From positions 22,134,001-22,198,000 of the forward strand of contig NC_092674.1 of assembly GCF_964355755.1 (NCBI RefSeq): 64,000 nt of DNA. Reading direction: 5' to 3'. The position numbers and the translations under genes are program-made. This document shows, piece after piece, positions 2,334-62,775 of the stretch (position 1 is its first letter; every line of letters starts with the position of its first letter). The notes under the pieces were generated by a model. It made no database searches. It worked only from the letters and a program-made list of their open reading frames with translations, and was not told the DNA's origin. Source of the DNA: Antedon mediterranea (Eukaryota; Animalia; Echinodermata).

Positions 2334-2899
2334 TTAAAAGTATAGCCTTTTTCTTAAACTAAACGCAGGAAATGGCACTTGTAACTTGTTCTCGCTTACT
2401 TTTTTATTCACATGAATTAAAATATCATTAACGTGATGCTTATCATGTAATGTTGCTAAAGCTTCCGTCAGGCTTTTAATGTAATACGAACCACAATTGG
2501 GGTCGTGATACCTATAGGAATATGCCAGAGGTGCTGTAGAATATCCAATGAGGAAATCAGTCTCATTGAGCTCTTTAGGAGTAGCTCCACCGCCGTCATC
2601 TTTTGGGTCATTGGTATTTCGACATGCTTGTATAAAAAATACTTTAGGTTTTAAGTTAAGACTTTTACAGCTATTTGCTCCAACGCTAGCGGTAAGGTCA
2701 AAAATCATACAAGCTTCTCCATCACTACCATAAACCATGTCATATCCACCATGAGACAGTATACAGCAAACAAAACAATCATAGTCTTTATGATCTTTTC
2801 TTCGCATTTCATCCATCACATCCTTCATCTCCTGAGCAGTTTGGTTGCGTTTCGATACAATTTTAAATCCAAATTCTTTGAAAACACGTTTTAGATTTT
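2334..2899 (-). CDS. Caspase catalytic (p20/p10) terminal exon
   Basis: ORF 2334-2828 extended to the AG acceptor at 2900-2901: [12 protein letters not shown]...SHG...QACRN...[15 protein letters not shown]. Confidence 0.93.
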
Positions 2900-5800
2900 C
2901 TGTTAAGAGAGCATTGTTTTGTCAGATTTATATAGTAAAATATCTAAGTAATTGATTGATTAAATTGACAAAGTTGGCATTACAAATATAAAGATAAATA
3001 ACATAATTGTTTGAAAGACTACTTACAACTGATTTTTATAGAAAAATAGGCCTATTGTATATTAATATGTTTCTATATAAATTTATATTGAGTTAATAAT
3101 AAAACATTGACACGAAGAAAACCCAATCGTTGTATACCTTCATCCTTATCGGAACCATCTCTCGTTGTCAATCCTTTAAAATCAACATTGTTTATGATAA
3201 GGCATATTCCACGCGGTGTGTGGGTCATGGCGTATATTTCCAAATCTGGTACAAGAAAAATATACAAATATTATTTTTATAAACAATATTCTGTAAGTCT
3301 GAACAAGTTCAAATTTAAGTATTGTGGTTAAAATAACATGATCAAAGTTCAAATACATTTGGTTGCAATTTCACTAATTTTTTAATTTTGTATTGTCACT
3401 ACTAAATAGAACGTTGGCGTGTCGCGCGTTGAGATAAATTGATGTAAGCAGATTTTTGGGAATTATTCATTATTAATTTGTAATGCATTATATTAATGAA
3501 TAAATAAGTTGTTGTTATTAGCAATCGTTTTTATTTTAAAGTTAATAACTTATTATGTTTACAATTATAGTAATAAACTTCTAACTTTGTAGTTTAAAGT
3601 TTTATATATTAAGACACATAATTTTGCCTAGCATTACCGGATGAGTTGAGTAAATTAAACATAATATTAAATGCTGACCACTACAGAATAGTGTAAGCTA
3701 GTCATTTTTAGAATAAAGATAATATGAAATACCTGTATTATAATTCTAGAAAACAATTCTACTCGTTGCTTTGATAACGAATAGAAACAAGAATAATTAT
3801 AATCAGACACAATGGTATAACTATATTGTTACATTTTCAAAATGAGATCATACTCATAATAATTTACCTTCGCCCGTCATCGCAATATCTGCAACTGGTA
3901 GTTGTGTTTCCTCCATTTTCTTTTCTAAGGAAAGATAAATACCATACGTAAATATTTCCGTCTTGCACAATATGTAGATGATACTGCATGTTTTAATGGT
4001 ACAGAAGGAACAGTGCCTATATTATTCGGGATTTGCGATTGACTTTAGATAATATACACATTTACAGTATTTTGAATGGTGTGGACCGAAATCACATTTT
4101 CAATTACCCAGACCCATTAGATCTTTCACCTGAACTAGAAGAATTCTAGAGAGTTCACTCGCTTCGCTCTCACTCTCCAGACGTGCAGTGTAGACGCTCG
4201 CGTATCGTACCATCTAGGTCGTCCACACAGATGGTTCTCGAATACACAGTAATTTCAGCGTAAAAAACTGGCGATTTCAAATTTACTAATGCAGGACTAT
4301 AATATATGTCATTTACAGGAACAAATAAATAGACACGGTGATTTATGTAGTCAACTATAATTAGCACCCTGGGAATTACTTCCGAAAGAGAAAGTTGTCA
4401 CCAAATGAGTCTAATAATGTTTTAGTCAAATTTAAACAAACCCAATTTGTGTTTTGTATGTAACATTAGGGTTTTGAGGGATTGGTGAAACGAGGAACAC
4501 TTTCTAAATAAATTCTTTATCCACTCAGTAAAAGAATAATATTTGTTTTCATGTTTTATAAATAATATACCGGTACCATTAAACACAGTGAAATATTTGC
4601 GTTTTAATACTTTGTAGAAACTGTGACTGTCGTAGTCGATTGAAATAGTGAAGTAACGATACACCACTACGACGTTTATATTTTTTTGTAATTATTAATT
4701 AATACAAACGTTGAGAAGCAACTGTCAGTAATACAGTTTTGTTTGTATATGTGTTTATATTATTACAGACATTTTAGTTTTAAACTAAGATATCTTTATT
4801 TCGGAATAAATAACAGCTTGTTGATCAATCAATCAATCAGGCATCCTTCAGTCAACATTGACTATGGAGACAACATTGGAGAGAATTTCATCAGTTATCT
4901 AGTGAGTATGTGTGAGTTCCAGTAGGTGATCTAGATGTTCAGATACCTCTCTTCATTTCCATGCGATAAGTCCTGCCTTAATACAATCTTTCCGTGATTT
5001 TCGGTCATCAGCCGTTTTTTCCCAGGTGTTAACATTGATGTCCATTGCCTTCAAGTCTCTTTTACATGCATCTTTGAAACGCAAAAGTGGACGTCCTTTG
5101 GATCTTTTATAATTCGCTAGCTCACCGTACAACATAACATTTGGAGTTCTTGTATCATCCATTCCTATGACATGACCAAGCCATCGTAGCCTTCGCTGTC
5201 GAATTAATGTAAACATCGAAGGAATGCCGCATCTATAAAGGATACTGTTGTTTGTTACCCTGTCCTGCCATCTGATATTTAAGATAGTCCGTAGACAGCG
5301 GAGGTGAAATACATTTAGTTTCTTTTCTTGTCTAGCATAGGTTGTCCACGATTCAGCTCCATACTATTAGACCTAATGTTTATCCCTCAAGGACCCATAC
5401 ATTTACCTACTTGTGTTATACCAAATAAGTATACTATCAGCTACTAAAAACAAATATCGTATTATTGTGTGCGGGTTTTTTCAGCGTGGACATCCATTAA
5501 ACAGTGTATACCACGATCGGAAAACACCCCTATTTGGAATAAATCTGACTTCCGAACCACCACCACTTTTTTCCTTATTTGTTCATCCACGTCAGCCTCT
5601 TCATGGTTGTTCACGAGATCATTCAAGACTCGTGTCTAAGAATTCCGTTGCCAATGTTGGGTCTTTTTTAGGATGTCACGGTCATGTATATTAACATTAT
5701 AAGTATAGGTTTGTATATGTCTGATTTTAACACTCGCCTGCCAGGAAATTTGGAAGGTCTTGACTTCATAGCTTTATCTATGTCTTTAGGCCAATTTTTG

Positions 5801-8800
5801 TTCTGGTCCAGTTATTAAGAGTTTAAAGAAGACATGTTGTTTAGACTTTAATTCAAGTAACTTGAGGAGAGTATTCTTTGTTTTTATCGTTTTTTCATCT
5901 ACCTACCTACTACGCATATGAACATATTAATAGAACCTGGAGTGAGTTGGAATAAAAAAACGAATGGCAAGTCAATATTCATTTTGTTGGTCATTATCAC
6001 AAGGCACATTAGGTATCTGGTGTTCAGCTATTCGTGTATCTTCTACTTTCGGTTCCTTGTATTGTCAATTATGAAAACGTTTTGTTTTAGTGATATTCTC
6101 GTCGAATATGCTTGAGTCTACCATACATAAATCCAGAAAATGTCTTTATCGTATCTGACCGTTCTCTGAAACTGTCAACAGACTTTTACAAAATATCATA
6201 GTAGAGCCTTCGCTGTATTACAATGTATTACAACTATTACAATAATTAGGTCGTGCCCACAGATGGTTCTCGAATACATAGTAACTTCAGCGTAAAAAAA
6301 AACTGGCGATTTCAAATGTACGTACCGCAGGACTATAAAACATTGTCGTTTACAGAAACGAAAAAATAGACACAATGATTTATGTAGTCAACCAAAATTA
6401 GCACCCTGGGAATTACTTCTGAAAGAGAAACTTGTCACAAAATGAGTCCAAATTTTTTATTTTGACGTGACTCATTTAAGCAAACCCAATTATTTGTGTT
6501 TTGTATCTAGCATTAGGGTTGGGGATGAGGATAGGTACAAAAAGGAAAAATTTTTAAATATGTTCTTTATCCACTCTGTAACGAAATATTTTTTTTTCAG
6601 TTTTATAGGCCTATAAATAATATACTACTAAATAGAGTAAACATTTCCGATTCAATACTTAGTTAAAACTGTCACTGTCATAGTCGATTGAAATAGTAAA
6701 GTACATGTAATGATACACCACTACGACGTTTATATTTTTTGTAATTATTAATTAATACAAACGTTGAGAAGCAACTTTATTGTTAGAAAACTTACTTTGG
6801 TGTACATGACTTGTACTAAACAAATTCCAATGGGTTTCCGGTTTATAAAGTTAAGTGGTCTATTTCGCACAAGTGTGAGAGTTCTAAATAAATGTATTTA
6901 TTTGTATCTCATTGTAAATACGACTGTTACCTGCTTACAAACCTAATACATGGTATTAACACTAATTGTGTTCATGGTAGAAATAAGTATGAAATGATGT
7001 TAAAGGTCACCTTGTTGAAATGAGATTCCTTGCTGTAACGGAACCAACTCCTCAAGCTTGTCTGAAAATAGATAAAATACATTAATTTTATAACCATTCC
7101 AAATAGCCTAATTAAGGGATACTTTTAAATCGTAAATCATAAATCAACAATATTTTGTTTTAAAGTGTACTATACCAAGATTGTTAAATTACTCAATTGG
7201 CATCATAATTTAAATAATTGCAACTATACCTTTTTTGTTATTAAAGTCGTAACAAAAAATACAATACCAAAACAACCTACTTGCTTATACATACTATATG
7301 AAAATTGATTTCAGACACATTCTACTGTTTGCCTCAATTTCAATAGAGCTTAAATACATGTTAATGATTTGTGGCCTGAGTAGACCTACCTTCATCTCCA
7401 ATAAACGGTTTTCCATCTAATAAAATATAAATAAATAAAACGTTAAAATGAAGAAATGAGTCCCACCCATATTTTTAGATCAAAATGTAATGCCCATTAA
7501 AAATATATATAATTTGATTCGTAAAATAAGTAGTAAAAGTGTTCAGTTTGACTAATGAGGTTGGACTATTGTAACCCGACTCGAATTATGTCATGTCACA
7601 ATAACAACGCGAGAGGAAATTCAACTTAATACGCAAATAAATGTTTAAATCTTACGGTAAGACATCGCGTGGTTCGTCTTCACGACGGTATACTTTGTTA
7701 GCGGCCTAAATATAACAGTTACCGTGTACTATAATATTACCTACATATTTTGTAGTTTTTATTTGTCTTCAAAGTTAATTATAAATAAGTTAATAATATT
7801 AAGTAATTCATTATTCCCTGCTGAAACGTAAACGTAAAACTTATAGACATAGAAAGAAATGTATAATTAATAACACAAAAAGAACCACAAACAATAGATA
7901 ATTACAAACAAATAAAAAATCCAACTTCCTGCCCATTCATGTTATGTAACCCTGTAGAGCTATGTTATGGTTGTACTTTTGACCTGACGAGTGTGTTAGC
8001 TTTGCTAGCATACAAAACAAATTTTTAGTCAACAAAGTACCATGAAGTGACGAAGTTTACATCACAGGCACATAATAAATTCTAAACAACCCGGTGATAC
8101 TATACTGAAATTTAATTAATTAATTTGAAACGATAAAGATGAGAATGAGAAAAGGTCGCCCCAACCGAGACTTCAACCCGAAACCTTCTCATTGATATGC
8201 AGCTGTCCTAACCATTAGACCACTGCGGCTTTCATTGTATTGTTCAAACTTGACTGGATAGCCACTCTTTAACATTCAGTCCTTCAGTTGTACGCAAGCG
8301 CACCAGAGATCAAATTGATACGCCGTCATCTTTCAGAATTTTGTTCACGAAGCGGGATCTCTGAAGAGATACTTTGTTATATATAAACATCACAGGCACA
8401 GCATAAATTCTAATCCACCCGGTGATATACTGAAATTTAATTAATAAATTTCTCAACAAAAATGATTGCAACCAAATTGAACATCGCCGACAGAGTTGAC
8501 ACAACTGCAAATAAAGATGCCTTCATAACTCTTAAAGATCACAAACCGAACTTCAGCAAAAACGCGACTTGCCGATTAATAAACCCGACCAAATCCGAGA
8601 TAGGCAAGATAAGCAAAACTATACTCGATCGTATTAACAGCAAAATTACATCAAAACTTCGCATCAATCTATGGAAAATAAATACCTCAACGGTCATCGA
8701 ATGGTTCAAGAGCATAGACAAGAAACAACAACACAACTTTATATGCTCCGATATCGTGGCATTTTACCCCTCTATCAGCAACGACCTACTGAACAAGGCA

Positions 8801-11800: not shown

Positions 11801-13594
11801 GGATCAAGTATTCTTTCAAATTCAGGGATAGCCTTTATTTTGAGTGTTAGTGTCTTAGCATTACGGACATGGAATTTCTTTTGTTCTCCATCTTCAGGAG
11901 CTACTTGAACATTTGTCGGAGTTTTAGGCCAAGAGATTGGTGGTGATCGTAGGAACCCTGGTCCATCGATGACTTTCTTCATATCGTCAATGTTTCCTCC
12001 TCTTGAAACAATATCTATAGTGTTCTGGTCTGATGGTACAAAGGCAATATCTTTGATCGGGTCAAATTCAGAAGTGATCTCACCTACACGGTATGCAACA
12101 TACGATCGGAAAGATTTAGATTGACCTCTCAGCCAACTGATGGCAGTCATACTGTCTGTCCAAATCTTTGAATAAACTATGTCAAACCTCAAAGCATTCT
12201 TTACAGTGAGCATCAGCCTTGAAAGCAGCAGAATTGCTTGAAGTTCTTTCCTGGGGATGCTTGATTGTTTAAGTGGTGTGAGTCTGGCTCGGGCGCACAC
12301 AAACGACAAATAAGCTTCAGTTGACTCTTCATGTGACCACCTTAGCCAAACTCCGATACCCATAGCATCTTCTGAAGCATCACTTGCACCATGCAGAGAT
12401 ACTTTTGGTAATGGTCTTTTTCCTCTAAATGGCTCTGGAATAAGACATCTTGGAATTTCTATGTCACTTGCTTTTTCAAGGTCTTTATTGATTTCACTGA
12501 GAATAGCACAAAGTTCACCTCTCTGGTTAAGTGGTGTATCCCAATCAATGTTTAGTTGCCACAGTTTTTGTAACAGTGTTTTCGGTCGGACAAGGATACC
12601 GGAAAGCATACCGAATACGTCATAGTAAGAAGCGGTTTGTTTCAGAATGCTACGTTTAGTTGGGATTAGACCTTGAATTAGTTTTACCTCTTTGACCTTT
12701 AGAGTGTCGTTCACAAGGTCCCACTTTGTTCCCAAAGCTGTTGCAGCAGTGGCGTCTTCTGATTCATCACACATATTCCTAACGTTGGATTGCCATTTCC
12801 TGATATTGAAGTTTCCTTTCTTCAGAGTCTCAATGAGTGTAGACTTTAAGTTGTCAGCCTCATTAGCATCAGTAACAGATTCATTCAAATCATCCATGTA
12901 AAACTGGTCAGTAACAATTCTTTCTAATTGTTTATCACCGGGTGCATGCTCAGATACTATATGCCTCAAAGTCACAATAGCCGCAGTTGGTGATGGCTTG
13001 TCACCAAACGTAACAGTCGTCAACTCGTACACTTGAATTGGATGGTTAGGATTCTCTCTGAACACAAATCGATGAAAGCGGGCATCATCAGAACTGATTT
13101 TAATAGCCTGGAACATCTTACTAATGTCAGCAATTATACCAACTTCGTTTTCTCGGAATCGTAGGGCAACATCAACAAGGCCAACAGCCATTAAGTCGCG
13201 TGCTACAATGCATAGTGATACCGGACCGACAGACAGACCGACAGACCGACAGACAGACAGACAGACAGAAAATAAATTTTGAAAATGTTAAGCGCGCGTA
13301 CGCATGCGTTACATTCGCTACGCACGAAATTGTATTGCCATATAATGATTTATGCCCTGAAATTTATGAGTACCAAATTTTATTTAATTGTGATTCATGG
13401 TTGTGAAGATATGATTACAAACGTGATTTCGTTAAATCGTGCGTAGACCGCGTAATTTTTTATTGCGCACCGTGAAAACATAACCAAATTGATTCCTGGC
13501 CATAAGGAATATACTGTGAAAAATTGACCTAGCTAGATTAAACTGATATCAAGATAACGTCTTAAAGCGATAAAACGCATAGTGATACCGGACC

Positions 13595-13625
<31 letters not shown>

Positions 13626-25600: not shown

Positions 25601-27092
25601 CATTATTATATACAAATAAACTTTATACTGACAGTTCCTTCTCAACGTTTGTATTAATTGTAATAATTACCAAAAATATAAACGTCGTAGTGGTGTATCG
25701 TGACATGTACTTTAATATTTCAATCGATTATGACAGTGACAGTTTTAACAAAGTATTAAATCGCAAATGTTTTACTGTATTTAGAGGTATATTATGTATA
25801 GGCTTATAAAACATGAACAAAATATTTCGTTACTGAGTGGATAAAGAATATATTTAAAAATTGTTCCTCTTTGTACCTATCCGCTTTCTCATCCCTCAAC
25901 CCTAATGTTACATACAAAACACAAATTGGGTTTCTTTAAATGAGTCCAAATCAAAAATTTGGACTCATTTTGTGATAAGTTTCTCCTTCGGAAGTAATTC
26001 CCAGGGTGCTAATTTTAGTTGACTACATGAATCATCGTGTCTATTTATTCGTTTCTGTAAACGACAATGTATTATAGTCCTGCGGTACGTACATTTGAAA
26101 TCGCCAGTTTTGTTACGCTGAAATTACTGTATATTCGAGAACCATCTGTGGGCACGACCTAGATGGTACGCGAGCGAAGCGAGCGTACCATCTAGTAATT
26201 AAAAGCCAAAAAAACGTTTTGGACAAACGAGCTAGATTTATAGATAAACTACGAATAATGAATGATGAAGTAAGTTCAAATACTTTTTGCATAAAGAATG
26301 TTGTACGCTACATACCCGGCAGCTTTGTTGCCAAAGTCTTTAGTCCATCTAAAAAGAAGGTAGCAACATGCTTGTAATAATGTTATGATAAACTATAGGC
26401 TTATTTATATATTAAAATTGTTAATATACGCATGAGCAGCAAATAGCAAAATTGATTTAAATAATAGATAAAGTTGAATTAGCCCATATTGGTAACTCGA
26501 TTATTTTACATCAGGAGAAAAAAAAGTGTTGTATAGGCCTACCTGTTATCTTTTTGTCTGCTTTTCCGCAAAGAAGGTTAGCAAACTCCACCAACTGTCC
26601 TCTCGTTTGTAAGAATTCCTCTTTTTCCAGATATAAAACGACGTCCCAAATATCTTTTATTGTCTCTTCATATTTTGATAGGTCATGATAGGCCCGTGCC
26701 TCACGGTAATCATCATCTGTAGTGTTCTTAAGTCCTTTATAAAAGGCATGCCGATACGGTAATACAGAGGCGCCATCTTTCAAGCATTGTGTTTTATTCT
26801 CTGCTTCAGCGGCGTAATCAGTCAATAATTGTTTAGCCTTTTTAGATTTTGTCAGTTCAGCAATGTCCATAAATATTTTCAACTTGGTAGATGAAACAGA
26901 ATCTTGCCGTTCCATTTCATTAAAAATATCTAGTGGCTTCACATTCTCCTTGGAAAGAACATCGATTTCTTCAACAGCACCAGACACAAGAAATATTAAC
27001 TCCTTCATAAAGCGCCCTGTGAACAATTTACCGAATTCTTTTTTAAGATGCTTGTATTTTTTATTATCACCAGATGTAGCCTTAGAAGCCAT
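2334..27092 (-). CDS. Caspase-8/10-like protease: tandem DED-like prodomain plus caspase domain, ~452 aa. Exons (minus): 26543-27092, 7390-7416, 7011-7061, 3868-3924, 3138-3245, 2334-2899
   Basis: All junctions are GT-AG and phase 1, total 1359 nt in one open frame. Motifs [24 protein letters not shown] (catalytic His), [12 protein letters not shown] (catalytic Cys), [17 protein letters not shown]. The link across the 19-kb intron is inferred from phase and from the parallel structure of the paralogs; extra micro-exons are possible. Confidence 0.78.
3138..3245 (-). CDS. Caspase p20 N-terminal exon ([36 protein letters not shown])
   Basis: 108-bp phase 1-1 exon with the classic caspase start motif and substrate-binding Arg. 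Confidence 0.9.
4135..5540 (-). mobile_element. Non-autonomous Helitron-like repeat (family copy 1), interrupted by an RTE fragment
   Basis: Homologous to 6245-6775, 25200-26195 (inverted) and 53757-54125. The minus-strand end carries a GAGCGAAGCGAG hairpin followed by CTAG|T. Confidence 0.55.
4821..5365 (-). mobile_element. 5'-truncated RTE-clade LINE (ORF C-terminus, 3' UTR and (TGAT)n tail)
   Basis: YGAESWTTY...[20 protein letters not shown]...[10 protein letters not shown]...LYGEL...GRPLLRFKD; 3' end GACTGAAGGATGCC(TGAT)n. Confidence 0.85.
6245..6775 (-). mobile_element. Helitron-like repeat family copy 2 (partial)
   Basis: Collinear with 4215-4725 (CAGATGGTTCTCGAATAC...GATACACCACTACGACGTTTATA). 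Confidence 0.6.
7979..8032 (+). ncRNA. Degenerate type-I (Penelope-type) hammerhead ribozyme
   Basis: Stem I TTGAC/GTCAA, core CTGACGA, stem II GTGTGTTAGC/GCTAGCATAC, AAAA in place of GAAA, near-palindromic stem III CAAATTTT, then TA. Confidence 0.65.
8058..8450 (-). repeat. tRNA-derived (SINE-like) repeat, ~330-bp monomer plus partial second unit
   Basis: tRNA-like segment 8156-8230 with A/B boxes; 8058-8125 is repeated at 8386-8450; homologous to 22412-22772 and 23631-23703. Confidence 0.7.
8451..9677 (+). mobile_element. Penelope-like retroelement fragment (RT plus GIY-YIG C-terminus), frameshifted; 3' tail continues after the BEL element at 22316
   Basis: [80 protein letters not shown]...LSTLNK. 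Confidence 0.88.
9678..10201 (-). repeat. 3' LTR of BEL/Pao element
   Basis: Nearly identical to 21788-22315 (about 4 substitutions and one 4-bp indel by eye). Confidence 0.95.
10347..13174 (-). pseudogene. BEL/Pao pol (RT, RNase H, integrase) with a +1 frameshift near 10832
   Basis: [35 protein letters not shown] zinc finger, VDYLGP...VSDNG...AVER; continues in ORF 10347-10838 (INSRPL...LTPNHFL). Confidence 0.9.
13174..13730 (-). mobile_element. DINE-1-like non-autonomous Helentron, copy 1
   Basis: 5' TTTTTAGTCGCGTGGAAGCGACT (subTIR plus short inverted repeat), (GTCT/GTCG)n microsatellites, 3' CACGCGACTTA subTIR then GGCTGTTGGCC stem-loop and TTGTT; inserted in a T run without TSD; BEL frame rejoins as TDL(F)DVALRF. 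Confidence 0.75.
13731..14562 (-). pseudogene. BEL/Pao polyprotein middle segment (post-protease to RT start)
   Basis: [38 protein letters not shown]...VRVVYDG...SLNDYLYKG. Confidence 0.88.
15055..18223 (-). pseudogene. LINE ORF2 (APE endonuclease plus RT) with a +1 frameshift at ~17555 and a TAG at 17446-17448
   Basis: [27 protein letters not shown]...[45 protein letters not shown]. Confidence 0.9.
18669..19334 (-). CDS. LINE ORF1, coiled coil plus RRM plus CTD (L1 ORF1p-like), 221 aa
   Basis: Heptad region, then [34 protein letters not shown]. Confidence 0.85.
   Translation of the reverse strand: MSAVFESEDQLSFESFVKKKLESILKGQESNKAELYEAISFNSARIDALEDENKELKTTVKELTTTVANLQGSTTDLLAKINKTERFSRRNNVRIVGVEENTKENCKLIFENIFSDFFKLDPRPTIERAHRDGKSMNGKPRHIIARFLSYASKIEVMKQRSSALDSQKFYIIDDLTAADLLEKKKWRSQVKEMYNKGTKLRFTAGKWRNSTGIPVNFSKFH
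20194..21760 (-). pseudogene. BEL/Pao gag plus aspartic protease, interrupted by Helentron copy 2
   Basis: YPTFNG...[18 protein letters not shown], three Cys/His knuckles, [11 protein letters not shown]. Confidence 0.9.
21788..22315 (-). repeat. 5' LTR of BEL/Pao element
   Basis: TG...CA ends; gag ATG begins 27 nt downstream on the minus strand. Confidence 0.95.
22316..22362 (+). ncRNA. Penelope hammerhead ribozyme, 3' part (5' arm of stem I left at 9671-9675)
   Basis: Rejoined: GTCTC CTGATGA GTGAGT-tgcacg-ACTCAC GAAA aaagcctg TA GAGAC. Confidence 0.8.
22412..22772 (+). repeat. tRNA-derived repeat, inverted relative to 8058-8450
   Basis: tRNA-like 22628-22695 (TGGTCTAATGG A box, GTTCGAGTC B box); a partial earlier B box at ~22416-22435. 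Confidence 0.7.
22796..23420. mobile_element. MITE with ~65-bp TIRs (22796-22860 / 23278-23343) followed by tandem terminal palindromes
   Basis: ATACAATCCGTTCACACGTACATGCATATGCGTAGTACATCAACAAA is matched in reverse; ATAACGCCCTAATTA(C/G)GGCGTTAT units repeat at 23342-23420. Confidence 0.7.
25200..26195 (+). mobile_element. Helitron-like repeat family copy 3
   Basis: Reverse complement of 4200-4745 and 5440-5540; ends CTAGATGGTACGCGAGCGAAGCGAGCGTACCATCTAG|T. Confidence 0.6.
26543..27092 (-). CDS. Tandem DED-like exon of the caspase gene (183 aa)
   Basis: DED1-like ELIFLV...[22 protein letters not shown]; DED2-like LPYRHAFY...[12 protein letters not shown] (compare caspase-8 SAYRVMLY...LLDIFIEMEK). 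Acceptor 27097-98, ATG 27092, donor 26541-42. Confidence 0.8.
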
Positions 27093-41770: not shown

Positions 41771-44700
41771 TTATTCTTTCGGTGTTCTACGTTGCAAGAA
41801 TTGTATAATTCTATCTACACTTGCCGGTTGATATTCATGACTCCATCTGTAAGATAGGGGGAAAGCGGATAAAATAGAAATTATAACTGAGATAGCATTA
41901 AAGCAAATGAACTACTGAATAAATGAACTTACTTAACAGCATTGTATTTGGTGATTCCTCTCATGTCTTCTGGTAGTGCCTCCATCTTTGGCCATTTGAA
42001 ATCAGGAGAAGTAACAGGAACAATGTTACAGTTAGTTTCCATGGCTGTTACTACCTCCTACAACAAATCATAAATGAGATTATGAATGTCTTTTTAAAAA
42101 AATGATTTTTTTGTACTGATTGTATCGATGAACACCATCAGCATCAAATTGACACATAGCGTTGGAAGTGCAGGCCCATGTTGTGTAATGTAATTTGAAA
42201 GGACGAAACAAAGCACACAGTACAGGATAGCAATAAAAAGCTTGAATAAAACTTTTATAATCAGTAAATGTATTTTCGCATAAGGATTTTTATTTGTTGT
42301 GCCAAAAAACCGATTATATGGAAAATCACACAAGACATAACTACAATACATTTAAGCCTCAATATTTGTTCTTTTGTCAAAATTGGCAAAGGATATGCAT
42401 ACCTTGTGAATCCAATCGTTCTGATCATTGTCACCCATACATCTATCCAATGCATTAATTGACAGAACAATGATAAAGTTGCGTGCACTCCGAATACTAG
42501 TTAGAAGGTTTGTGTCGAATCTGCCTGCCCCTAAATTTTCTACATCCATGAAAACGGTGAAGCCTTTGTCTTTCATCTTTTCTTTAAGAAGACTACATAA
42601 GAGAGAACAATTTATGTAATATAAAACATTGTACAGTATTATAGATATAAAAATGAATACGTCGTTGTTGTTGCAAACAACCAACTTTGTTCATGTCTGT
42701 CTACACTATCAAACAAATGTGATGTACCTATATATGGACATGATGATGTCATATCACTACCATATTTGAGCATATCACTACCATATTTGGCCATATCACA
42801 CTGTTTTTGTCAAATTAGTTTGATAGTTTAGACAGATCTTAAGATTACGACGGATACTCCTTTGATGATCCTTATGATTAAGAAAGTGCAGCAGGTTTAT
42901 TTATTGTAAAAACGATATGAATTAAGTCATTTCTGTGTACAGAAATTCAGATCATAATTGCAAAATATTAAACATTTAATACCTTGCTAACCCTGATCCA
43001 TTGGATCGTCTATAGCTGATGAAGACATCAAGAGTCTTTTGTGGGTTTCCATCTTCCATGTCTTGTGGTAAAGGCTGTTCGTCTAGTTTTATTAATAAAA
43101 CAATATCTATGATGATGGTGTTTTTTTAAATTGCAAAATTAAATTCTCATCCGCCAGAATATCTATAGATTCTTTCAAGTGACAACATGCCACAATAGTA
43201 TTGGTACGGAGGATTTTTCAAAACAAGAAGTAGTTTTATATAATTATTTGTATCTCTGTTGAAATCTTTCCATAAACCAATTACATTATTATTAACAATG
43301 CTAATGGTATCCATAGTAACAAGAAATGTGAATAATGATGTTAAAGGTCACCTGGTCCAGACGAGATGCCTTGCTGTATCGGAACCAAGTCTACCAGTTT
43401 GTCTAGAAATATACGAATAAACTATACGTTGATAATCTATCCATAATAAAAGGTAATTAGTTATCCGCACTCGGCGGATAACTACGTGTTGTTACTTATT
43501 TGCCTTAGCAAGTATCATAGAAACATTACTAAGAGGAATTATATCCTAATATAATATCATATTAATGTCAGATAACAAATTAAATTACATAAATAACACA
43601 TTAATTGTTACTACTACCGTTATTATATGACTGTAACAAAATCGTATACTTGAATTTTATAATCCAACCAACCAAAACAATTAAATATATATTATCCCCT
43701 GAAAATAACATTTTTGGTTGAATATGCCATTTTAATTTTAATGTCAAATAGTCACATAATATTTATTATTCACTTTGACCAAAAAAAAAAATGGATCGAA
43801 AAAAAAAATTACTTTAAAAAATTATAAGTTACAGCCACAAATACAACAATTTTTTCCAGTCAATAGGGGGTTTGGTTGAAATTGAAAATCATTTTTGCTT
43901 GTTAAAACTGAAAATGGCACATTCGAATTCAATTAGTTTTATTGGTTTATTTGACTTGATTTGAATATTAATATTACGTCTTCATTATCATTTCATTTTA
44001 TTTTCAAAGAACCTATTTCTTCAAACACAAGTGTATCATTAATATTATCATGGCAATTAATAATGGTTATTTTTATAATAATGTATTATTTGTATCCTTT
44101 TCTTTCAAAATCGTCGATTTGTTTACGTTTCATTATTTGAAGCATATTATTTTGGTGTCTAATAATACATTATGCAATATTATAATATATTTGATTATTA
44201 GCAATTATTTATAGTATAATTATAATACATATTGATAAAGTACCGTAAGCATAACCAGACTTGACTACTTACCTCTTCCTTCACATTCACCTAAAAAACA
44301 AACCAAAACTGGTGTTAACATGCTTATACCTGCTATTACGAATAGCACTAGTTTTATTAGATAAACAGCCTTAAACAGTAAAACTCTGTCTACACTTATT
44401 TCAGATTCATGTTCACACAACAACTATAAAAAAACATTTTGTTAATTGGAAAGTAAAGTAGCAATAAATTTACAATTGCATGAAAGGAAATCGTAATATT
44501 GTTAGTTTTATAGTAAACGAGTTTCAACGTTTTTCCGATAGGAAATGTACATACTTTTTCCATGTATTACCAACTTTGCCAACCCATCTAAAATGTAAAA
44601 AAAAATATACAAAAGAAAAATTACTGTAGTGTTTTATGTGTAAAGACGTCGAATATTGACTGTATCGCCCCATACGACAATATTTGCCTAGTGTAAAGAC

Positions 44701-47407
44701 GTCGAATATTGACTGCATCGCCCCATACGACAATATTTGCCTAGTGTAGTATCACAAGGTAGTGTGTATAACATGCGGTGCTTCCATAGTGAATTGAAAA
44801 AAAGGTCATGAAACACCACAAAAGTATTGAAGATAATCAATGAGTATGTTTTTAAATGCTTGTACGTAAATGTGTTCTTTTATCATGCTTTCTCCATGCT
44901 TATTATTAACAGTGTTTAAACTGTAATTGTTCTGTAATCCGAATTCCATGTTATTTATAATGATTTAAATTTGCTAGAATTATGTGGCGAATGGAATGTC
45001 TATTTTTTTTTTACCATAATTATTTTTAATGAGGGTAATCCATCCAGCAATTTCTGATCATTAGATACCCTCAGAGGTTCAAGATGCTCTACATAAACAA
45101 AGCCTTTTTACAAGTCTTTGGGAGTGGAGTTGTTTTGTCCTTCTGACATATGACGGGACTTGAGCCCAGGGTTGGCATTTATCAATATTTGCTTATATTT
45201 TTGCTTAAGGTGAAATATTTAAGAAGTGCTTAAGCAAATAACTTAATCTTATTATCAAACCCGCAGAAAAATTGTTACTTTGCACATGCGCTAAATTAAA
45301 CTCTAGAGGGCAGCAAATTATGTCTTAAGACGAAAAATGCTTGCTTACGTTTGCGTATTAACTTTTTTCTCTTACCGATGGCGGCGCTATAACATTTTAT
45401 GTCGGTATTTTCACTCCCAACAAGAGAGGGCGCATTCTGGCTTTTATTACTTAAAATAGAGAAAGAGCAGAACAGTCGGAAATACATACGAAAATCATTC
45501 GCTCTAAACTTAAACAAAGAATATATATCACAAGAATGAGTATTCCGCGATTTTCCCTGTAACAGTAATATTGTCCATGTGGTAGGGCGCCGCCATAAGT
45601 GTGGATGTATCTGGGATGTATACAACTTTTTGTGACGGTTTCAATAATCAAAGGCTAGACCACCGGTAGTATTTTCATGATAAAAAATGTTATCAACTAC
45701 ATGCCAACATCATGTTAAATACTATTTGGATATTTAATTGTTCGTTTTATGCAATTTATTTAGTAAAAACTGCCGTATAAACAGTTTGCTTTATCAACCG
45801 GGCGCTACGATAGCGTGACCGGGCGTGTTGGTGTTTACGCGTTTTCACGAAGGATTGTTTAATAATATTCCTATATTTAACTTGTTTCTGGTAAAACAAA
45901 TAAATGTTAATAACATTTAACATTTTGTCCTATTAATAACATGTATTTTATACTAATTTATATCATAAAAACAATACTTAATTTACCGGGCGTAGAGTAG
46001 TACCCGGCAATGGTAAAGAATAGGCCGTGCTGAGTAACGATTCATTGATTTTTGGTGTTGCTGCGTTAGGCCTTTTTTGTGAACTAACTTAGCATGTTAG
46101 TAAATAATTGTCTGTAAAAGTGAATGTACACTAGTTTGTTAATAAATATGTATTATAAAATAGTTTACAATTGCAAAAACTATTATCATAATTCTATTTA
46201 ATGTGACATGTATAATATCTATTAAATCAAGTCTTATTTAGTATGTATACATCCGCCCTTATGAGGGCGGGCATCACTCACTGGAGCTCTCTGTTACAAA
46301 TTTCTCATGCAAAAATCGCGGAATACTCATTCTTGTGATATATATTCTTTGACTTAAATCAAATCAACATTTATTTATTTTTATCAATGACAGCGACCCT
46401 TGGCAGCCGATACAGTTTTCTAAAAGTTAGTCAATTGGGTAGTAGTAGTACCTATCCCGAAAATATTAGTTTTGCTCGTCCAATTTCTAGGCCATCTTTA
46501 TGAAGATCGATATCATTATTTTAGCGTCCGTAGTACAGCGGAAAACGCACTAGCGTAGCCTTTCCGAATGTTCAATGTTTCCGGCCTAGCGCGCTCGCGT
46601 TGTCAAAAAAGAATGTTTCTGTTGCAGAAATGAGATAAGACGAAATTTTTCATCTTAAGGCAGGGTGTTATTCGTCTTAGATTTAAGACAAAATTAAGCA
46701 AATTTTTTTGCTTAGATATATTGATAAATCTGACTTAGGCAAAATCAAGGATTTAAGGCAAAGTTAAGACCATTTTTTGGCTAAGCAAGTTTGATCAATC
46801 CGGCACTCTTGGAGTGGTAACCACCAATCCCCAACTCCACTACATTGGCCTATATTAGATTATTCAATGTTTTCTTACTTGTTAGTATGTTTTCTGCTCC
46901 TTTATTAAGAAGAGAAGCAAATTTTATGAGCTGATCTCGAGTTTGTAATTCGTTTTTCACTTCTTGTAAGTAGGCTACTAAGTCCCACATATCTTGAATT
47001 GTTCTCTTCTGATGACCTAAACGATAAAAGGCTAGTGCCACATCAACATTTCTGATCCCCGTGCTCTTTATTGCCAAATAGAATGGAATTCTATAGGGTT
47101 TTAAACCGGTCCCACTTTTTAAATACTGATCGGGAAAATTAGACAGCAATTCCCGGAGCTTTACCAATCTTGTAACTTGAGCTATTTCATCCAACATTTT
47201 CAAATGAGTAGGTGAGATAAGAGGTTTGTTATTTTCATCTAAAGTATCTTCTAAATGATTTAAGTAACCATGTGGAGTTGTACTTGAGTCAATCTGATCA
47301 AGATAGTCAAACAATAAAAATTTCAGCAGGCTCTGGTATTGCCCATCAAAACATTGTCCGAACTTGTGTACGAACGTTGGATAATCCATTTTGTTAGCGT
47401 CAGCCAT
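41771..47407 (-). CDS. Tandem DED-like plus SARM1-type TIR domain protein, 362 aa. Exons (minus): 46879-47407, 44273-44290, 43352-43402, 42983-43082, 42403-42592, 41933-42057, 41771-41846
   Basis: All GT-AG with consistent phases (1,1,1,2,0,2), 1089 nt, no internal stop. TIR reads LDVFISYRRSNGSGLASLLK...VFMDVENLGAGRFD...ARNFIIVLS..ALDRC...DWIHKEVVTAM...NIVPV...LPEDM...KWSHEYQ, matching SARM1 TIR; catalytic Glu retained. Confidence 0.85.
44638..44746. repeat. 53-bp tandem duplication
   Basis: GTGTAAAGACGTCGAATATTGACTG(T/C)ATCGCCCCATACGACAATATTTGCCTA, two copies. Confidence 0.9.
45515..46351. mobile_element. MITE with 40-bp perfect TIRs and 7-bp TSD (P-element-like)
   Basis: CAAAGAATATATATCACAAGAATGAGTATTCCGCGATTTT at both ends; ACTTAAA at 45508-45514 and 46352-46358. 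Confidence 0.85.
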
Positions 47408-50400
47408 TTTTCTAAAAGAAAACCAAAATGTATTTAAAATTAAAATGAATGGATACGGATAGTGTTAAGTGATTTTAGGGTAAATCTAGGAAAATCTTTA
47501 AAAAAGTATTTTGTCACGGTTGTGTTTGTAAAATCAATATGTAGAAAATCACATAATTTGTAATTTGTTGTATAATACTTTTGTTGTCGTTCATTTATGA
47601 TGTAGGCTAATTACGACATAGTGAACGGAATCAACACGACTAAGGCTGGACCTGGCCGTTGTGTAAGGTATATGTAAGTGTAGTATTAAATCTTTCAGAA
47701 ACCCTTGTAGGCCTAGAAGGAACTCATTTTCATCATCTGTCTTTCTTTTATTTATCAAAAATAAAACAGGTAATCAGCCTAACACCTAATCAAGTTCAGT
47801 CCATTGAATGATAGGCTACATAATTTTAAGAATACACATAAAACATTTATTTCCCAAGCAGAACGGCCCACTGTGTCGCGGAAGTTTCAAAAGATGTTTA
47901 AACTAAATAATGTATTAATTATACCAATTAGGATGGTATTAATATTTGAATAAACGCCAACACCTCCCCAATAAAACATCACTTAAAATAATTATCGCCC
48001 CTCAACCCACCCTTCCATATTTATGCACACAATTATATTGCATTATATTAATTTATAACACATTGTAGTAGAATTCATCGGACTGTTATCTACAATTTAC
48101 CAACCTTTTTAATTTTTTTTTTTTCACTTTTCATATTTTATTTGATAATAAATGTTACTAGATTATTAAAACTAAAAAAATTAAACGTATCCCTAGAATA
48201 AGCACCTTTCATATTAACTCATCATCACTGTGAAACATATTAGGTTTAGTTTTATATCAAGCATTTCAATAATGGTAACCGACCGAAAACATCCAGGCCA
48301 GAACGCCATTTTAAATCCTTTTACCCGTGTCATTATCATTTCGAGAACCATCGTCTACACTTCCTAGAGCCTATATAACATAATTATGCATGTGGGCTTA
48401 CGTGTGCCCAGTTGGCCTTACTCTGGATATAAAGGTGTGGCTGATATCTATTTAAACACTACTAAATAATATAAAATGTTACCTTCTTTTCTCTTTCTAA
48501 ACACAATTATTTCGTTGGTAGTGTTCCAATAAAGGTCAACTGTCTTCTGTACGTCACATTTTACAATAACAATGGTTGAAGCGGAAATAAATAAATCGTT
48601 TTGATGCATCAAATAACGATGAATGAATAGAATAAATAAAGAATTATATATGAAATTCGAACTTTAACCCTTGATTGCTCTCTCTAAAAATTGCCATACA
48701 CACCGGTACACATCGAATGAATAAATATTCCAAATAAGTTGAACATTTAGGCCTACATTCTTGTAATACGGCGTTTTAAGGAAATGCGTAGACCTACGTC
48801 GATAATCCATGGCGTTATGGTCATGTCAGACACATCATAGGCCTTTTTAACGGTCGAGGTTTATACATTTTTTTAATGTATTTTTCTGGTATTTTATTTG
48901 AAGAATACGTATAATATTACACCAAATAATTATGTTATACAGTACCTACTTTCGATCTTTATTTTCATTTTATTTCATTTAAAAAAAAGTAGGTATCAAC
49001 AATCACATTGAAAGCATATTTCAGAACTTGTCACTTTTGTGTATCTATTCCTATCTATTGTTCTGTTTTGGTGAAATTCCAAATGTAATTGTTTCTCGCG
49101 TAAAAATGTATTTAAGGAGAAATAACTTATTTATCCATGGTGCGACTAAACATTTTTGTTATTACATTTTTTTTACTACATTGCTTATTAACATTATAGA
49201 AAAATGTATGGGCGATATTTGAACACCATTTTTAATCACGGGCTTTCTCGATATTAGGAGGAATATCTTACAGTGGATCTCCTCAAATTGTCCGTCCATG
49301 AGATGCTACAATTCTTATATTGCAAAAAGTTTGATTCATAATATCGCAATGAGGTTGCCTTAGTACCAAATATATCCCCTATTTCCGCTTGTAGCAACAA
49401 AACATGTCTATCATGCTTACTTTTTATTGTTATGAATTATGATCAGAGCTGTGACTAGATCTCAATTTTACTACGTATAATCACAATTTAAAAGGTTCCA
49501 ATTTTATAGTCGTCAAAAATGCAATAGGCCTACATAACAGAATACTGTTACATAAAACATGTGTATAGACTGAGACTTGTATCATGACTGTTATGGGATA
49601 AGATATTTTTTATATAGCAATAAGTACATACATTATAAAATTATATGGGATATTGAAGTGAAATGTACACAGTACAGTATGTATGAATAATATATACAAT
49701 ATTATGAAGATGGATATATGTAGTGAACTCCAGTAAGTGGCGAGTTCAATTGCAATTTAGGTCCTGTACCAATTCCGATAACGCAAATAGGCCTATATCT
49801 TTGTTTATAATTATTAATATTTATTTTCAGAAATTCGAATGAATAATCTCAACCAAAACATGAGATGATATAATATTATGTTCGGCTTCCATGGTACAAT
49901 GGCGGAAGTGTAGGCCTAGGTGGGTATATCAATAGAAGTAGGCCTACTAAAAAGCAAATAATTTTCTTTTGTGCACAGCCTGGTTGTAGCTGTAGGCTAA
50001 ATCAAACTTTATTATTTCGTTACAAAGCGTACATATTGTTGTAGCTTTACAATCTTTAAGGCTATTTAGGGTAAGCTAAAATAAATTTCAAAATGTTAAG
50101 TTTAAAAAACGGTTTAGTAATTACATTGAAGACAGCATTATTTTAACAGATACTACAGTACAACCTAATGCATAAAATTATACTTGATTGTAATGCAAAC
50201 AGTTTTGGGAAGTTTATACTATTTTTCTAAGCATCTTAATCTTCAATTTATATACATAGTTAAAACAATTTAAATCTGACGATTAGGCCTACATTAAAAA
50301 CATTGTTGTAAATGTACGATTTACACATTTTCTTATTGAGATTTATTTAAATTAGTAATAGGTAGCCTACAGCCGAAAGTAAGTAGGCCTATTAACCGGT

Positions 50401-50801
50401 ATATACTTCCCATATACATTTCTTAAACAGGCTTATTCCAAACTCGTGTAACTACAGTATAACTTTTAATAGTATAACAAAGTTCACAAAGCTCATACAT
50501 TTTAACGTACATATATGCCTACTATATCGTACCTACTACCACTTATAGTTACAAACTAAAACAAAACCAAAATATAACTCTGTTGACGTCACTGTCATTC
50601 CTAACCCATACTGACCTCGAATCTGTTGATTGTATAACATACTTAGGTCATGTGATTTGTACTGAATAGTGATAATATGATAACAGTATCAAACGCTGTG
50701 CATCATAGCTAATACATTATGCAGGACATATTAGCAATGTATTTGAAAATATACCCAATAGACTGAAATAACACATTTAAATACACATTATGTAAGTTTT
50801 A

Positions 50802-50900
50802 TTAGTCGTGTGCAATGCGACTCTATAGCTCACTATGTTGGTCGGTTGGTAAACACTCAAATTTACACACGTGGCTGCAGCCATGTATATGGCCTTGTTT
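50802..50900 (+). mobile_element. Miniature Helentron related to 13174-13730; another remnant at ~55880-55956
   Basis: TTAGTCGTGTG...GCGACTCTATAGCTCACTATGT..GGTCGG...GGCCTTGTT. Confidence 0.55.
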
Positions 50901-50975
50901 CATGTGCGCAAGCAAATTAACAGTGGTTTCATCAAAATAAAGTTTTTAAATAATGACCGTAGACTTGAATCTTAC

Positions 50976-53219
50976 CATGGGAGACACATCGGCAATACTT
51001 GCATCCTCCGATTGCGCTTAACTTTCCATCGGTGATTCTTCATCTGAAGTAAAATTAAAACTTATAATTATGAATGCAATTATAAAAATGCATATCATAT
51101 GAGACTAAAGACAGAGAGAACAGAGATGTTGCATGATCATTTCTGCAACATGAATTAATCTCACGGAATGATGCAGTATCATTACGAATAGAGTTTCGCT
51201 ATTATAAATCACAATCAAATGTTTAATATCTTCATTATCATTGTTATTATTTTCTTTAATTTGTTATCACATTTCAGAGTATGACCACCATCGTCATTCT
51301 AAATAATAATTAATATAATCATAATGACTACTATATTTTGTTATCATCTTCATTGTAGCCTTTCTGATATCCCTTAGTAGTCCGTTTAACTTGTATGAGG
51401 ACTATTAAACGTTGATTTTACATCGTAGTTATTCTTCTGATTGTAATAATTAAAAAAATGTATACATAATTCTACTTATACGTCTATATGCCATACCTGT
51501 GAGGTTTAAGTGCTGCACCAATGCTAAAATATAAAAACAAATAGAAAGTTTATTCTTATAACCTTAGTCCAAATGTCTGTAATGAGTTGCTTTACAAATA
51601 TGCTTTTATAAGTCTGTTTCCTTATTTCTTATTCTAAATTTTATGAAAATTAGCAAGGAGGGAACATTAGGTTGCCTTAATATTGTTTGTATCTATATGA
51701 CTAAAATGTAAAAAAAAATCCTATTTTGTTAGTGTTGAGATATCGAATTTGGCAAGAAGTCTATAATAAATCCATAGGCCTATTCAATTGTTTACTATTT
51801 ATAATCTTACCTGGTTGTACCATAACCAAATCTACCAGTTTATCTAAAATAAAAACGCAATTAGCAGTTAATGGTTTCTCGACATGTTTAATCAAATAAT
51901 AGATTACGTATTCGCATTTTTAAATCACTGTGGTACGGAACAAACAATGTTGGTCTTCCAACTTTAGCATTCGATGGTGGCATTCCATGTGTATACAGTT
52001 AAACTTCAAACAAGTCTAAGGAAAGTTTGAATTCCTAAATTAATGTCTACATGAAGAACATCTACGTTTGTAAATTATGTGCAAAACACGATACTTGGTC
52101 TACTGCACCTACCTGTCTTCCGACGAACATTGTCAAAAGTTCTATCTAGATTTTAAAAAACAATACAAAGGTTCATTTAATGAAATTGTGTTTACATTTA
52201 ACGGTGTCATGTTTGCACATTTGTTATGAGATAATAATATTTTACAGATTTGTATAAAAGGGTGCTGCAATGTTTGCACAAAATTTTGTTATCTCTGCAC
52301 ATTTGAGCAAAATTAGGTGCTAAAATGTAACTTTGTGCTCATTTCAAGGCTCATTGTATAGTTGACAGTTTTTGTGATTTTTTCAATTCGATTATACTTT
52401 TATTTCGGATTCACGTCATAGAATATAGGCCTACTCTACATACCTTCATTTGTAGTTACTAAAACACTGAGTGCATCTGGAAAGAAAATAAAACAACAAA
52501 ACAATTATAATAAATATTTTAACTGCAGTTTAATTGGCTATTTAGTTATGTATGTATTTACATTAAATCAAAAATGTAAAATGCACTAGTGATAACTATT
52601 ATTTTTAGTATTCAGTTATGCTGTATTAGATTATGAAAGAAGTACAATAGTTTATTACTCTTTGTCATAACATATACCTGTTATTGTTGCTTTTGCTCTT
52701 CCGCAAAGGTGATCAGCAAATGTATTCAGTTGTTCTCGAGTGGCTAAATCTTTCTCTTTTTCCAGATACAGCACTATGTCCCAGATATCTTTTATATATG
52801 GTATCTTCATATTTTGTCAGGTCATGATAGGCACGTGCATTAAGGAAATCATCAGGTGTTGTGTCCGTCAAAGCTTTATAGAGTGAATGACGATACGGCA
52901 GTACACCTCTGCCATTTGCCAGATACCAATCATTTTCTTCGGCGTACTTCTTGAGTAAATTCGTTGCCATTTTACATTCTGTCAGTCTAGCAATGTCCAT
53001 GAACATCTTTAATTCATCTGGTGCCACAAAACCTTTCCATGCCAATTCGTTGAAAAAATCTAAAGGCCTTACCTTCTCCTTGGTAAGGGTATCGATATTT
53101 ACAGTGCCAGTTAACAGAAATTTTAACTTTTTCATATTGGTCCCCGTAAAATATTTGCCGAATGCATTTATAAGCTTCATATATTTTGGATCATCGGGAT
53201 ACATGTTAACAACAGACAT
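50976..53219 (-). pseudogene. Third tandem-DED paralog, DED-only or disrupted. Exons: 52678-53219, 52444-52476, 52113-52145, 51811-51843, 51497-51523, 50976-51043
   Basis: Close to the caspase DED exon (VLPYRH...ARAYHDL.KYE.TI). A 4-bp TATA insertion at ~52794 shifts the frame, which resumes as KDIWDIVLYLEKE...LCGRAKATIT. Four phase 1-1 micro-exons follow; the last exon reads DEESPMES*. No caspase or TIR exon was found downstream. Confidence 0.72.
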
Positions 53220-53756: not shown

Positions 53757-54125
53757 CTAGATGGTACGCTCGTGTTCACAAATGGTTCTCGAATACAGAG
53801 TAATTTCAGCGTAACAAAACTGTTTATTTTATGTACGTACCGCAGGCCTATACATTGTCGTTTACAGAAACGAATAAATAGACGATGATTTATGAATCCA
53901 AATTTTTGGATTTAAACAAACCCAATTTATGTTTTGTATATAACATTAGGGTTTAGGAATGGGGAACAATTTTTAAATATATTCTTTACCCCTCAGTAAC
54001 GAAATATGTCTTCATGTTTTATAGGCCTATATAAATACAGTAAAACATTTGCGATTTAATACTTTGTATTTTTACTTTGATTGAAATAGTAAAGTACATG
54101 TAACGATACACCACTACGACGTTTA
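53757..54125 (-). mobile_element. Helitron-like repeat family copy 4 (internally deleted)
   Basis: Starts CTAGATGGTACGCTCG; collinear with copies 1-3. Confidence 0.55.
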
Positions 54126-54604
54126 TTTTTTTTTTTACAATAGGTACACACAAAATAGGTCTACGGGAAATTTATATCTCTAGACGGACGATAATATTTA
54201 TAAAGCCTATGTGTTTGGATAGTTTAATCGAACCAGAACTTGTTATACAGAATGTGTCATTATTTATAACACACTGCACTGGATATTCTATTTACACGGG
54301 GCGATCATTGGTGTTTATTTATGCTACAATGGGTTTAGTAGCAGCATAGGCTTATTTGCAGCCTATAATTTCGAAAAATATAAACTAAATTATATATACA
54401 TATAAATTTATTCGATTGAATTGAAGATAGTTGACAATAGGTAAAACTAGAGAATATATTCATTGCCATGAGTGAACTTTGATCGAACCGACTATCAATC
54501 TACCTTTCCACAATCGGGTGCGTACCTGGGTATTCCTAGATATCAAATTCAATCTCAAGGTCATCGCTCACGAATTGCATTCTGTCTGATACTGACTACC
54601 AGCG

Positions 54605-54790
54605 AAAATGCACTAGTGATAACTATTATTTAGTATTCAGTTATTCTGTAGGCCTATTAGATTATGAAAGAAGAAGTACAATAGTTCATTACTCTTTTTC
54701 AGGTCAAAACATACCTGTTATTGTTGATTTTGCTCTTCCGCAAAGGTAATCAGAAAATGTAGGCCCTATTCAGTTGTTCTCGGGTGGATA
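54605..54790 (-). pseudogene. Fragment of a fourth DED exon 3' end plus donor and intron
   Basis: Diverged copy of 52578-52746 (ATACCTGTTATTGTTG.TTTTGCTCTTCCGCAAAGGT). Confidence 0.8.
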
Positions 54791-55254
54791 AGAGGGTGCG
54801 AACACATTTAATTCAATGTGATCTCTATATCTTCTTCAAAATAACGAGGTAGAAAACAACAAAACGTGAGGCTTGCCCAATGGCAATTTAGTCCTATCAT
54901 AGAGAATATCAATATGGACCTATAGGCCAAATTTCCTTTAAAATTGTGTACATTATTACAATTGGCGGTTTAAAATATAGCCTACAGTAACTACATTTCT
55001 TTAATATTACCTTTTTGTGTAGAACAACCACTATTTTCGTTAAGAAGAAGGAGTTCCAATTCGATCGCGGTTCACGGAGTAACAAACCATAAACACTGCT
55101 GTCACCTCACGGTAAAATGTAGACTTGCCTCAAGTCTGTAGTTATTTCGAGGCTTTCGATGTTTGTCTGAACCTGAAATCGGGCCTGAAATACAGACTTG
55201 TAAGACGCGAATAGAACTTAATCGATTAATCGAGACCGCAAACATCAGAATGAT

Positions 55255-55380
55255 AAGAATGACGTAGGATGGCTATATAGGGCGGGCCGCATGTAAATAA
55301 TGGATTTCGAATCAACCAATGATTAAACGGATGTCATTTTCGGCTTTCGTACGTAAGCAAATTGACCAATCAACAGCGAT
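55255..55380 (-). promoter_or_regulatory. Putative Pol II promoter for the third DED gene; non-coding first exon ~55011-55245
   Basis: CTATATAG, GGGCGG and two CCAAT motifs clustered upstream of a CpG-richer segment that ends in a minus-strand GTAAT donor at 55009-55010. Confidence 0.45.

Positions 55381-57011: not shown

Positions 57012-62775
<5,764 letters not shown>

Follow-up and report, generated by a model that had tools for sequence, protein, structure and literature searches.

The window analysed here is a 64,000-nucleotide stretch of AT-rich animal DNA from the crinoid Antedon mediterranea. Three genes on its minus strand, here called A, B and C, begin with homologous first coding exons (Table 1), as the initial annotation had stated; when the gene A protein is compared with the window by tblastn, the corresponding exons of gene C and gene B are recovered with E 3e-44 and E 3e-20, respectively. 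The ATG follows an AG acceptor by 4, 4 and 1 bases in genes A, B and C, with identical phase throughout, and all of these exons close with I/L-T and one further base ahead of a GT donor (phase 1); both features had been described before and stand. The list of shared motifs holds in part: the exon is homologous in all three genes, but D.WD.V.YL and TR.QL..FA are out of frame in gene C.

Gene A encodes P0001 (463 aa; four accessions, identical protein) in seven coding exons that run from 27092 to 2334, and gene B encodes P0002 and P0003 (362 and 373 aa, respectively) between 47407 and 41771; the coding sequence of gene C starts at 53219. The splicing of genes A and B is taken from RefSeq-named models together with splice signals. 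In these models, the first exon of gene A is joined to the caspase exons via five phase-1 exons, a connection on which the initial annotation depended, and the first exon of gene B is joined to exons for a SARM1-type TIR. The same tandem-DED front end therefore precedes a caspase in one gene and a SARM1-type TIR in the other, as had been proposed. All linker exons of gene A have lengths that are multiples of three and phase-1 ends, and a transposon-filled intron of 19 kb separates its 33-nt and 27-nt microexons. The DKL exons of genes A and B are homologous at the DNA level (blastn 76% over 138 nt, positions 43274–43411 of gene B, with the match extending into the intron; local score 166 vs a shuffle maximum of 67, with 0/300 shuffles reaching 166).

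Table 1. Features of the tandem-DED genes in the window, listed from the gene A end
Feature	Position	Strand	Remarks
Gene A caspase exon 2 (SHG, QACRN, stop codon)	2334..2899	-	Pfam Peptidase_C14 E 2.8e-43
Gene A caspase exon 1, start of catalytic domain	3138..3245	-	
Gene A linker exon, 57 nt	3868..3924	-	Phase 1-1
Gene A DKL linker exon, 51 nt	7011..7061	-	Homologous to DKL exons of genes B and C
Gene A linker microexon, 27 nt	7390..7416	-	Phase 1-1; beyond the 19-kb intron
Gene A linker microexon, 33 nt	26316..26348	-	Phase 1-1
Gene A tandem-DED first coding exon	26543..27092	-	aa 1-183 of P0001 (100% match); tandem DED fold
Gene B terminal TIR exon, with EE loop (HEYQ) and stop codon	41771..41846	-	
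Gene B TIR exon opening with the catalytic Glu codon	41933..42057	-	Phase 0 to phase 2
Gene B TIR exon, helix alpha-A and BB loop	42403..42592	-	Phase 2 to phase 0
Gene B exon with start of SARM1-type TIR	42983..43082	-	Phase-1 acceptor; phase-2 donor within a Ser codon
Gene B DKL linker exon, 51 nt	43352..43402	-	Beyond it, homology to the caspase genes is no longer clear
Gene B linker microexon, 18 nt	44273..44290	-	
Gene B alternative linker microexon, 33 nt	44555..44587	-	Present in P0003, skipped in P0002
Gene B tandem-DED first coding exon	46879..47407	-	aa 1-176 of P0002/P0003
Gene C last recognisable exon	50976..51043	-	Eight codons, then an in-frame TAA
Gene C candidate linker microexons	51497..52476	-	52476-52444, 52145-52113, 51843-51811 (DKL), 51523-51497; AG...GT, multiples of 3
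Gene C tandem-DED exon	52678..53219	-	Frameshift ~52799-52793; ORF stop 52715-52713
Decayed partial copy of gene C DED exon (3' end and donor)	54605..54791	-	blastn 83% over 189 nt
Promoter-like stretch ahead of gene C: CCAAT-type boxes (two), GC box, TATA-like box	55250..55380	-	Read by eye, putative

The description of the shared exon as DED-DED is borne out by confident structural models. Those of the gene B and gene A modules, built from 38-row alignments, reach pLDDT 90.2 and 88.7, respectively, and for both the top structural matches span the entire module and are tandem DEDs from caspase-8, cFLIP and viral FLIPs. The ten best Foldseek matches of the gene A module are caspase-8/cFLIP tandem-DED chains (TM 0.59–0.66, E 0.006–0.04). 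A VIA search with the gene B module against 48,161 chains gives nine matches at Z>=8 (Z 9.3–11.6), all nine of which are tandem DEDs, including that of caspase-8 (4zbw_A; Z 11.6, rmsd 3.8 over 158 residues). The Foldseek E-values for both modules are weak (0.006 or above), and the fold is called from consistent top ranks, TM scores and VIA Z-scores. At the sequence level, Pfam gives a DED below threshold within the first halves of the gene A and gene C exons and none in the gene B exon, and the only PDB sequence matches of the module at E<0.5 are to cFLIP. The DEDs are 13–19% identical to the caspase-8/cFLIP chains that are their top matches, and their Pfam DED scores fall short of the cut-off. 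When longer relatives of the two DED exons were sought by word-index homology, the window's own protein was the sole outcome (1 of 759 and 1 of 518 candidates).

The caspase of gene A and the broken frame of gene C

Judged from its sequence, gene A is an intact tandem-DED caspase. Its catalytic domain has the His–Cys dyad, and SHG, QAC, TRDG and YSYR align with caspase-7, in an alignment that also included an ancestral effector caspase and that takes in the Arg/Gln/Arg residues of the Asp pocket. The consensus of the caspase active-site pentapeptide is QACxG, from which gene A departs with QACRN and P0125, a second tandem-DED caspase, with QACRP. The best PDB sequence matches of gene A are caspase-3/7-like (E 1e-36 to 1e-33), and caspase-8 is matched with E 5e-33. 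Genes A and P0125 resemble caspase-8/10-type proteins in combining a tandem DED fold with a C14 caspase that has a His–Cys dyad, an architecture that is also listed for amphioxus (PMC2575513, supplement file 5). Gene A differs from them in its QACRN pentapeptide and in having both DEDs in one exon that is followed by phase-1 microexons. It is predicted to work like caspase-8, the likeness being one of architecture.

P0125 is encoded outside the window, on the 31.9-Mb contig to which the window belongs; its accession is just ahead of that of gene A, and from accession numbers alone we infer that the two genes adjoin. In a midpoint-rooted tree of the module, which includes the 60 of 67 family proteins with at least 120 profile positions (7 omitted) and in which the backbone is open, genes A, B and C and P0125 form one clade with support 100/98. 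These four are also the members of the family in which the module is followed by the DKL linker motif. The initial annotation had described a three-gene kit. The shared tandem-DED front end of that description is retained, and its extent is too narrow, given the fourth clade member and the occurrence of the module in 67 representatives. Because two of the three intact members of the clade are caspases, a caspase is likely to have been the ancestral tail.

Gene C has a lesion in its first exon. A 4-base insertion in an AT run disrupts the frame partway through DED2, leaving an ORF of 168 aa with 27 unrelated residues at its end and a stop 35 bases ahead of the donor. Among the candidate microexons that follow, the most upstream one is similar to gene A (0/300 shuffles) and the DKL one to gene B (1/300), and the last recognisable exon is weakly similar to the 57-nt linker exon of gene A (3/300 shuffles). 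The five linker-like exons that gene C has behind its first exon were absent from the list in the initial annotation. No caspase or TIR exon was found in 47412–52677, where the best values (E 0.044 over 41 residues and E 0.012 over 16) are taken as chance, and none of four candidate gene C ORFs is present in the protein collection. Against gene A, dN/dS is 0.37 for the whole exon, 0.42 before and 0.24 after the frameshift (172 codons; rough values, with dS 0.8–1.1). As the ratio stays low past the frameshift, gene C is likely to have been functional for long, and the break is either recent or not real; it could be an allele or a slip of the assembly.

These observations bear on the earlier view that the products of the three genes co-assemble via their DEDs, as a protease, an NADase and an output-tuning decoy like cFLIP-short. 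Genes A, B and C do have fold, clade and locus in common, and cFLIP enters caspase-8 filaments (PMC12133306). Like cFLIP-short and viral FLIPs, gene C would consist of a tandem DED with no catalytic exon behind it: if read in the ancestral frame it ends at the TAA of its last recognisable exon, as a DED-only protein of ~230 aa, and the signs of selection extend across its entire first exon, downstream of the promoter-like stretch. However, an intact decoy is not supported by the window sequence, in which the frame is broken inside DED2 and a later exon has a stop. The premature stop lies ahead of several introns and would probably make the transcript a target of decay, and the candidate ORFs lack counterparts in the protein collection. 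In addition, the A and B modules are only 31–36% identical, so their cross-binding is not to be assumed. Gene C also differs from cFLIP-short in being a sister of the caspase gene A in a local array, and the resemblance does not imply orthology. A kit of co-assembling protease, NADase and decoy is considered quite improbable. Gene C is probably a recent pseudogene, which is likelier than a working decoy; a DED-only protein of this kind may possibly exist in other haplotypes.

Gene B and its SARM1-type TIR

As its models predict, gene B is a tandem DED joined to a SARM1-type TIR, and it is the solid new item at the locus, with an origin that is traceable. In Pfam searches P0003 gives TIR_2 only, with neither ARM nor SAM, and the N-terminal half of the protein folds as a tandem DED. 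The TIR matches human SARM1 with E 1e-49, is up to 61% identical to SARM1-type TIRs and agrees at 44 of the 49 columns that are at least 90% conserved in the 100 closest of 118 TIRs. Residues kept in gene B (by alignment to SARM1, with numbers counted) are R569, R570, L579, D594, E596, G601, E642, W662, H685, Y687 and Q688, a set that is named as important (PMC8635717; PMC11874154; 10.64898/2026.09.21.753143). K597 of the BB loop is Asn in gene B, at a position that is variable among relatives. Gene B thus has the TIR sequence, the catalytic Glu and the BB- and EE-loop residues of SARM1/TIR-1; it differs from them in the tandem DED that takes the place of ARM and SAM, and in an altered helix alpha-A. 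Because it has no ARM domain, gene B cannot be a SARM1-like NMN/NAD sensor.

The introns of the TIR point to its source. A metagenome scan gave 448 confirmed loci; among the best 80, two with intron-like match spans were examined. One of them (L059) is a spliced SARM1 gene at a genomic locus of which the greater part matches sea cucumber SARM1, and all three TIR introns of gene B match it in position and phase, in a comparison with this one intron-bearing SARM1 locus. The other (L072) contains two separate TIRs and was dropped as an intron-bearing SARM1 locus. The three shared introns favour a DNA-level copy of the last exons of SARM1 over a retrocopy. In a poorly resolved TIR tree, gene B is not placed beside sea cucumber SARM1. 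A test for a chimeric origin of the first TIR exon gave no support, there being no significant DNA likeness to the corresponding linker exons of genes A and C (the score is reached by 85 and 218 of 300 shuffles, respectively).

That lack of likeness could also suit an explanation in which the DED and TIR exons of gene B belong to separate genes, or the TIR is what is left of a decaying SARM1 fragment, and the annotation has joined the two artificially. We regard this as very improbable: all exons of gene B have AG/GT boundaries, compatible phases and one open frame, the two RefSeq isoforms differ by one 33-nt exon, the DKL exon lies 270 nt ahead of the TIR exon, and the TIR contains neither a stop nor a frameshift.

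The join of a tandem DED to a SARM1-type TIR is known from one species and one gene. It is absent from the other 66 of the 67 family representatives, in which the SARM1-type TIR profile matches gene B alone, and in the best 120 of 231 full-length relatives of gene B the DED module is found in none of the 119 besides P0002 (best E 0.3). In a TIR survey, group 24 (SARM1) comprises proteins with SAM and/or ARM, typically one per genome (PMC7075850), and the main text of that survey makes no mention of DED. No report of a DED–SARM1 TIR fusion or of this locus was found in the mainly open-access literature covered; the architecture tables of PMC8662601 may bear on its novelty.

Helix alpha-A is the part of the TIR that has changed. 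E248, K249, M250 and D252 replace V, H, L and a hydrophobic residue of most relatives, at SARM1 positions V582, H583, L584 and L586, and E, K and M are each seen in none of the 100 closest TIRs. In inactive SARM1, alpha-A docks on ARM (PMC7688312), and in the active assembly it forms the interstrand AE interface; TIR activity requires self-association (PMC8635717). Since alpha-A serves the AE interface besides ARM docking, the change may harm assembly. The TIR of gene B might accordingly keep its active site without forming the two-stranded SARM1 assembly, and act as a scaffold or as a damper of tandem-DED caspase or SARM1 signalling instead of a killer enzyme. Four changes from hydrophobic residues or His, three of them to charged residues, in a helix that is half of the AE interface (PMC8635717) speak for this reading. 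However, gene B retains L579, H685, Y687 and every one of the BE-interface residues, and loss of the ARM partner would also permit alpha-A to change. A scaffold or damper is considered unlikely, and the drift of alpha-A itself fits either lost ARM docking or impaired assembly.

The tandem-DED family and a proposed origin of the locus

A profile of the module finds 67 representatives at E<=0.001 among 1.84 billion proteins. With up to five Pfam families per protein considered, so that the counts are lower bounds, they include at least 7 proteins with NACHT, 4 with ROC or COR, 3 with kinase, 3 with MAM, 3 with Death, 2 with NHL, 2 with ZU5 and 2 with caspase domains, and 1 each with a very large GTPase, ubiquitin and TPR. 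P0139 and P0185 are among the members that have NACHT or Death domains. Ten representatives that were looked up are all from crinoids (8 Antedon, 2 Anneissia), and with genes A and B all 12 members of known source are crinoid, in agreement with the lineage restriction that had been suggested (55 of the 67 are without a source). The locus thus belongs to a family of shuffled adaptors like those of other marine invertebrates. As in the lineage-specific expansions in which a constant DED region precedes varying effector tails (PMC8195603) and in the amphioxus hybrids (PMC2575513), a sessile marine animal has one adaptor module attached to a wide range of sensors and effectors. The constant part here is a DED pair and not DED plus TRADD-N as in PMC8195603, and no SARM1-type TIR tail is named in the passages covered. 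Supplement file 4 of PMC2575513, as its PDF is parsed, has DED twice, both times in the NACHT-partner column.

On balance, it is probable that the locus is an array of caspase genes in which gene B likely swapped its caspase exons for the TIR exons of SARM1, becoming a predicted NADase that DED clustering would switch on, and in which gene C is a probable pseudogene. According to this proposal, a tandem-DED caspase gene was duplicated into an array and one copy, gene B, exchanged its tail by taking up genomic SARM1 sequence at a phase-1 junction that follows the linker. The tandem DED would then replace the SAM ring of SARM1 as the clustering device. A relative from the same tandem-DED family that acts upstream (NACHT-LRR, ROC, kinase or DED-DED-Death type) would nucleate the gene B product and likewise the neighbouring caspases; family members with NACHT are candidate activators alongside FADD. 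Extended further, and held more tentatively, the array would belong to an inflammasome-like network of crinoids built on DEDs only, in which NACHT-LRR, ROC and kinase sensors with this tandem DED would seed assemblies to which either a caspase or a SARM1-derived NADase is recruited; we consider this possible and rather doubtful. In mammals, a caspase–SARM1 link exists by another route, the reported activation of SARM1 by caspase-3 (PMC12846840).

Implications for death-fold signalling

Domain shuffling in the immunity of marine invertebrates is already well known. Among the canonical TIR proteins of mammals, SARM1 is described as the only established NADase, and its control lies with ARM and SAM (10.64898/2026.09.21.753143; PMC8635717). 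Gene B would offer a natural test of whether another clustering device, DED assembly, can drive a SARM1-type TIR, and its altered alpha-A could separate the residues that serve ARM docking from those that serve TIR–TIR assembly. If the proposal for gene B is true, an animal would couple NAD destruction to death-fold signalling, comparable with plant TIR-NLRs, in which such destruction is coupled to receptor oligomers. If the network also exists, the crinoid would possess a natural NAD-depletion effector that is driven by the death fold, and two death outputs on one scaffold.

Retroelements in the long intron of gene A

The long intron of gene A, the tandem-DED caspase gene, contains an LTR retrotransposon with gag- and pol-like frames on the minus strand. 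Its terminal repeats, at 9678-10201 and 21788-22315, share 98.5% identity, and its motifs suggest a Pao/BEL element. The LINE-like element nested within it is bracketed by a repeat pair (13268-13625 and 19440-19798) whose two copies lie in opposite orientations.

Repeats and other features of the window
Feature	Position	Strand	Description
LTR retrotransposon	9678-22315		within long intron of gene A; terminal repeats and coding frames
LINE-like element	15058-19361		nested within LTR retrotransposon; ORF1- and ORF2-like frames
Interspersed repeat family	4206-4750, 6247-6776, 25608-26170, 53770-54137		one family
Duplicated segment	31138-32037, 37520-38469		copies 82-90% identical
Imperfect inverted repeat	38602-39500		~900 bp, 75% identity
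RRM-containing gene	58590-62850	+	exons; RRM_1 match

Other duplications and the neighboring gene

On the plus strand, the open frames of the duplicated segment are broken; a Pfam search with one of these frames gave no match. The imperfect inverted repeat resembles a foldback or MITE element. The RRM-containing gene, a putative U2SURP according to the initial annotation, matches Pfam RRM_1 at 61206-61472 (E 3.8e-08). It lies on the opposite strand from the frameshifted tandem-DED gene, gene C, in a head-to-head arrangement.

Tandem-DED proteins and a SARM1 locus

In the tandem-DED family member P0123, a ROC domain is preceded by four near-identical tandem-DED repeats, and P0143, from the same species as the window, has an interferon-induced very large GTPase-like domain fused to a tandem DED. 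The first TIR intron of the spliced SARM1 locus L059 (L059:1808-1976) has a GC-AG boundary.

Interspersed repeats in the gene array

Copies of the interspersed repeat family are located within introns of gene A and upstream of gene C. Unequal crossing-over within the array could occur through these repeats.
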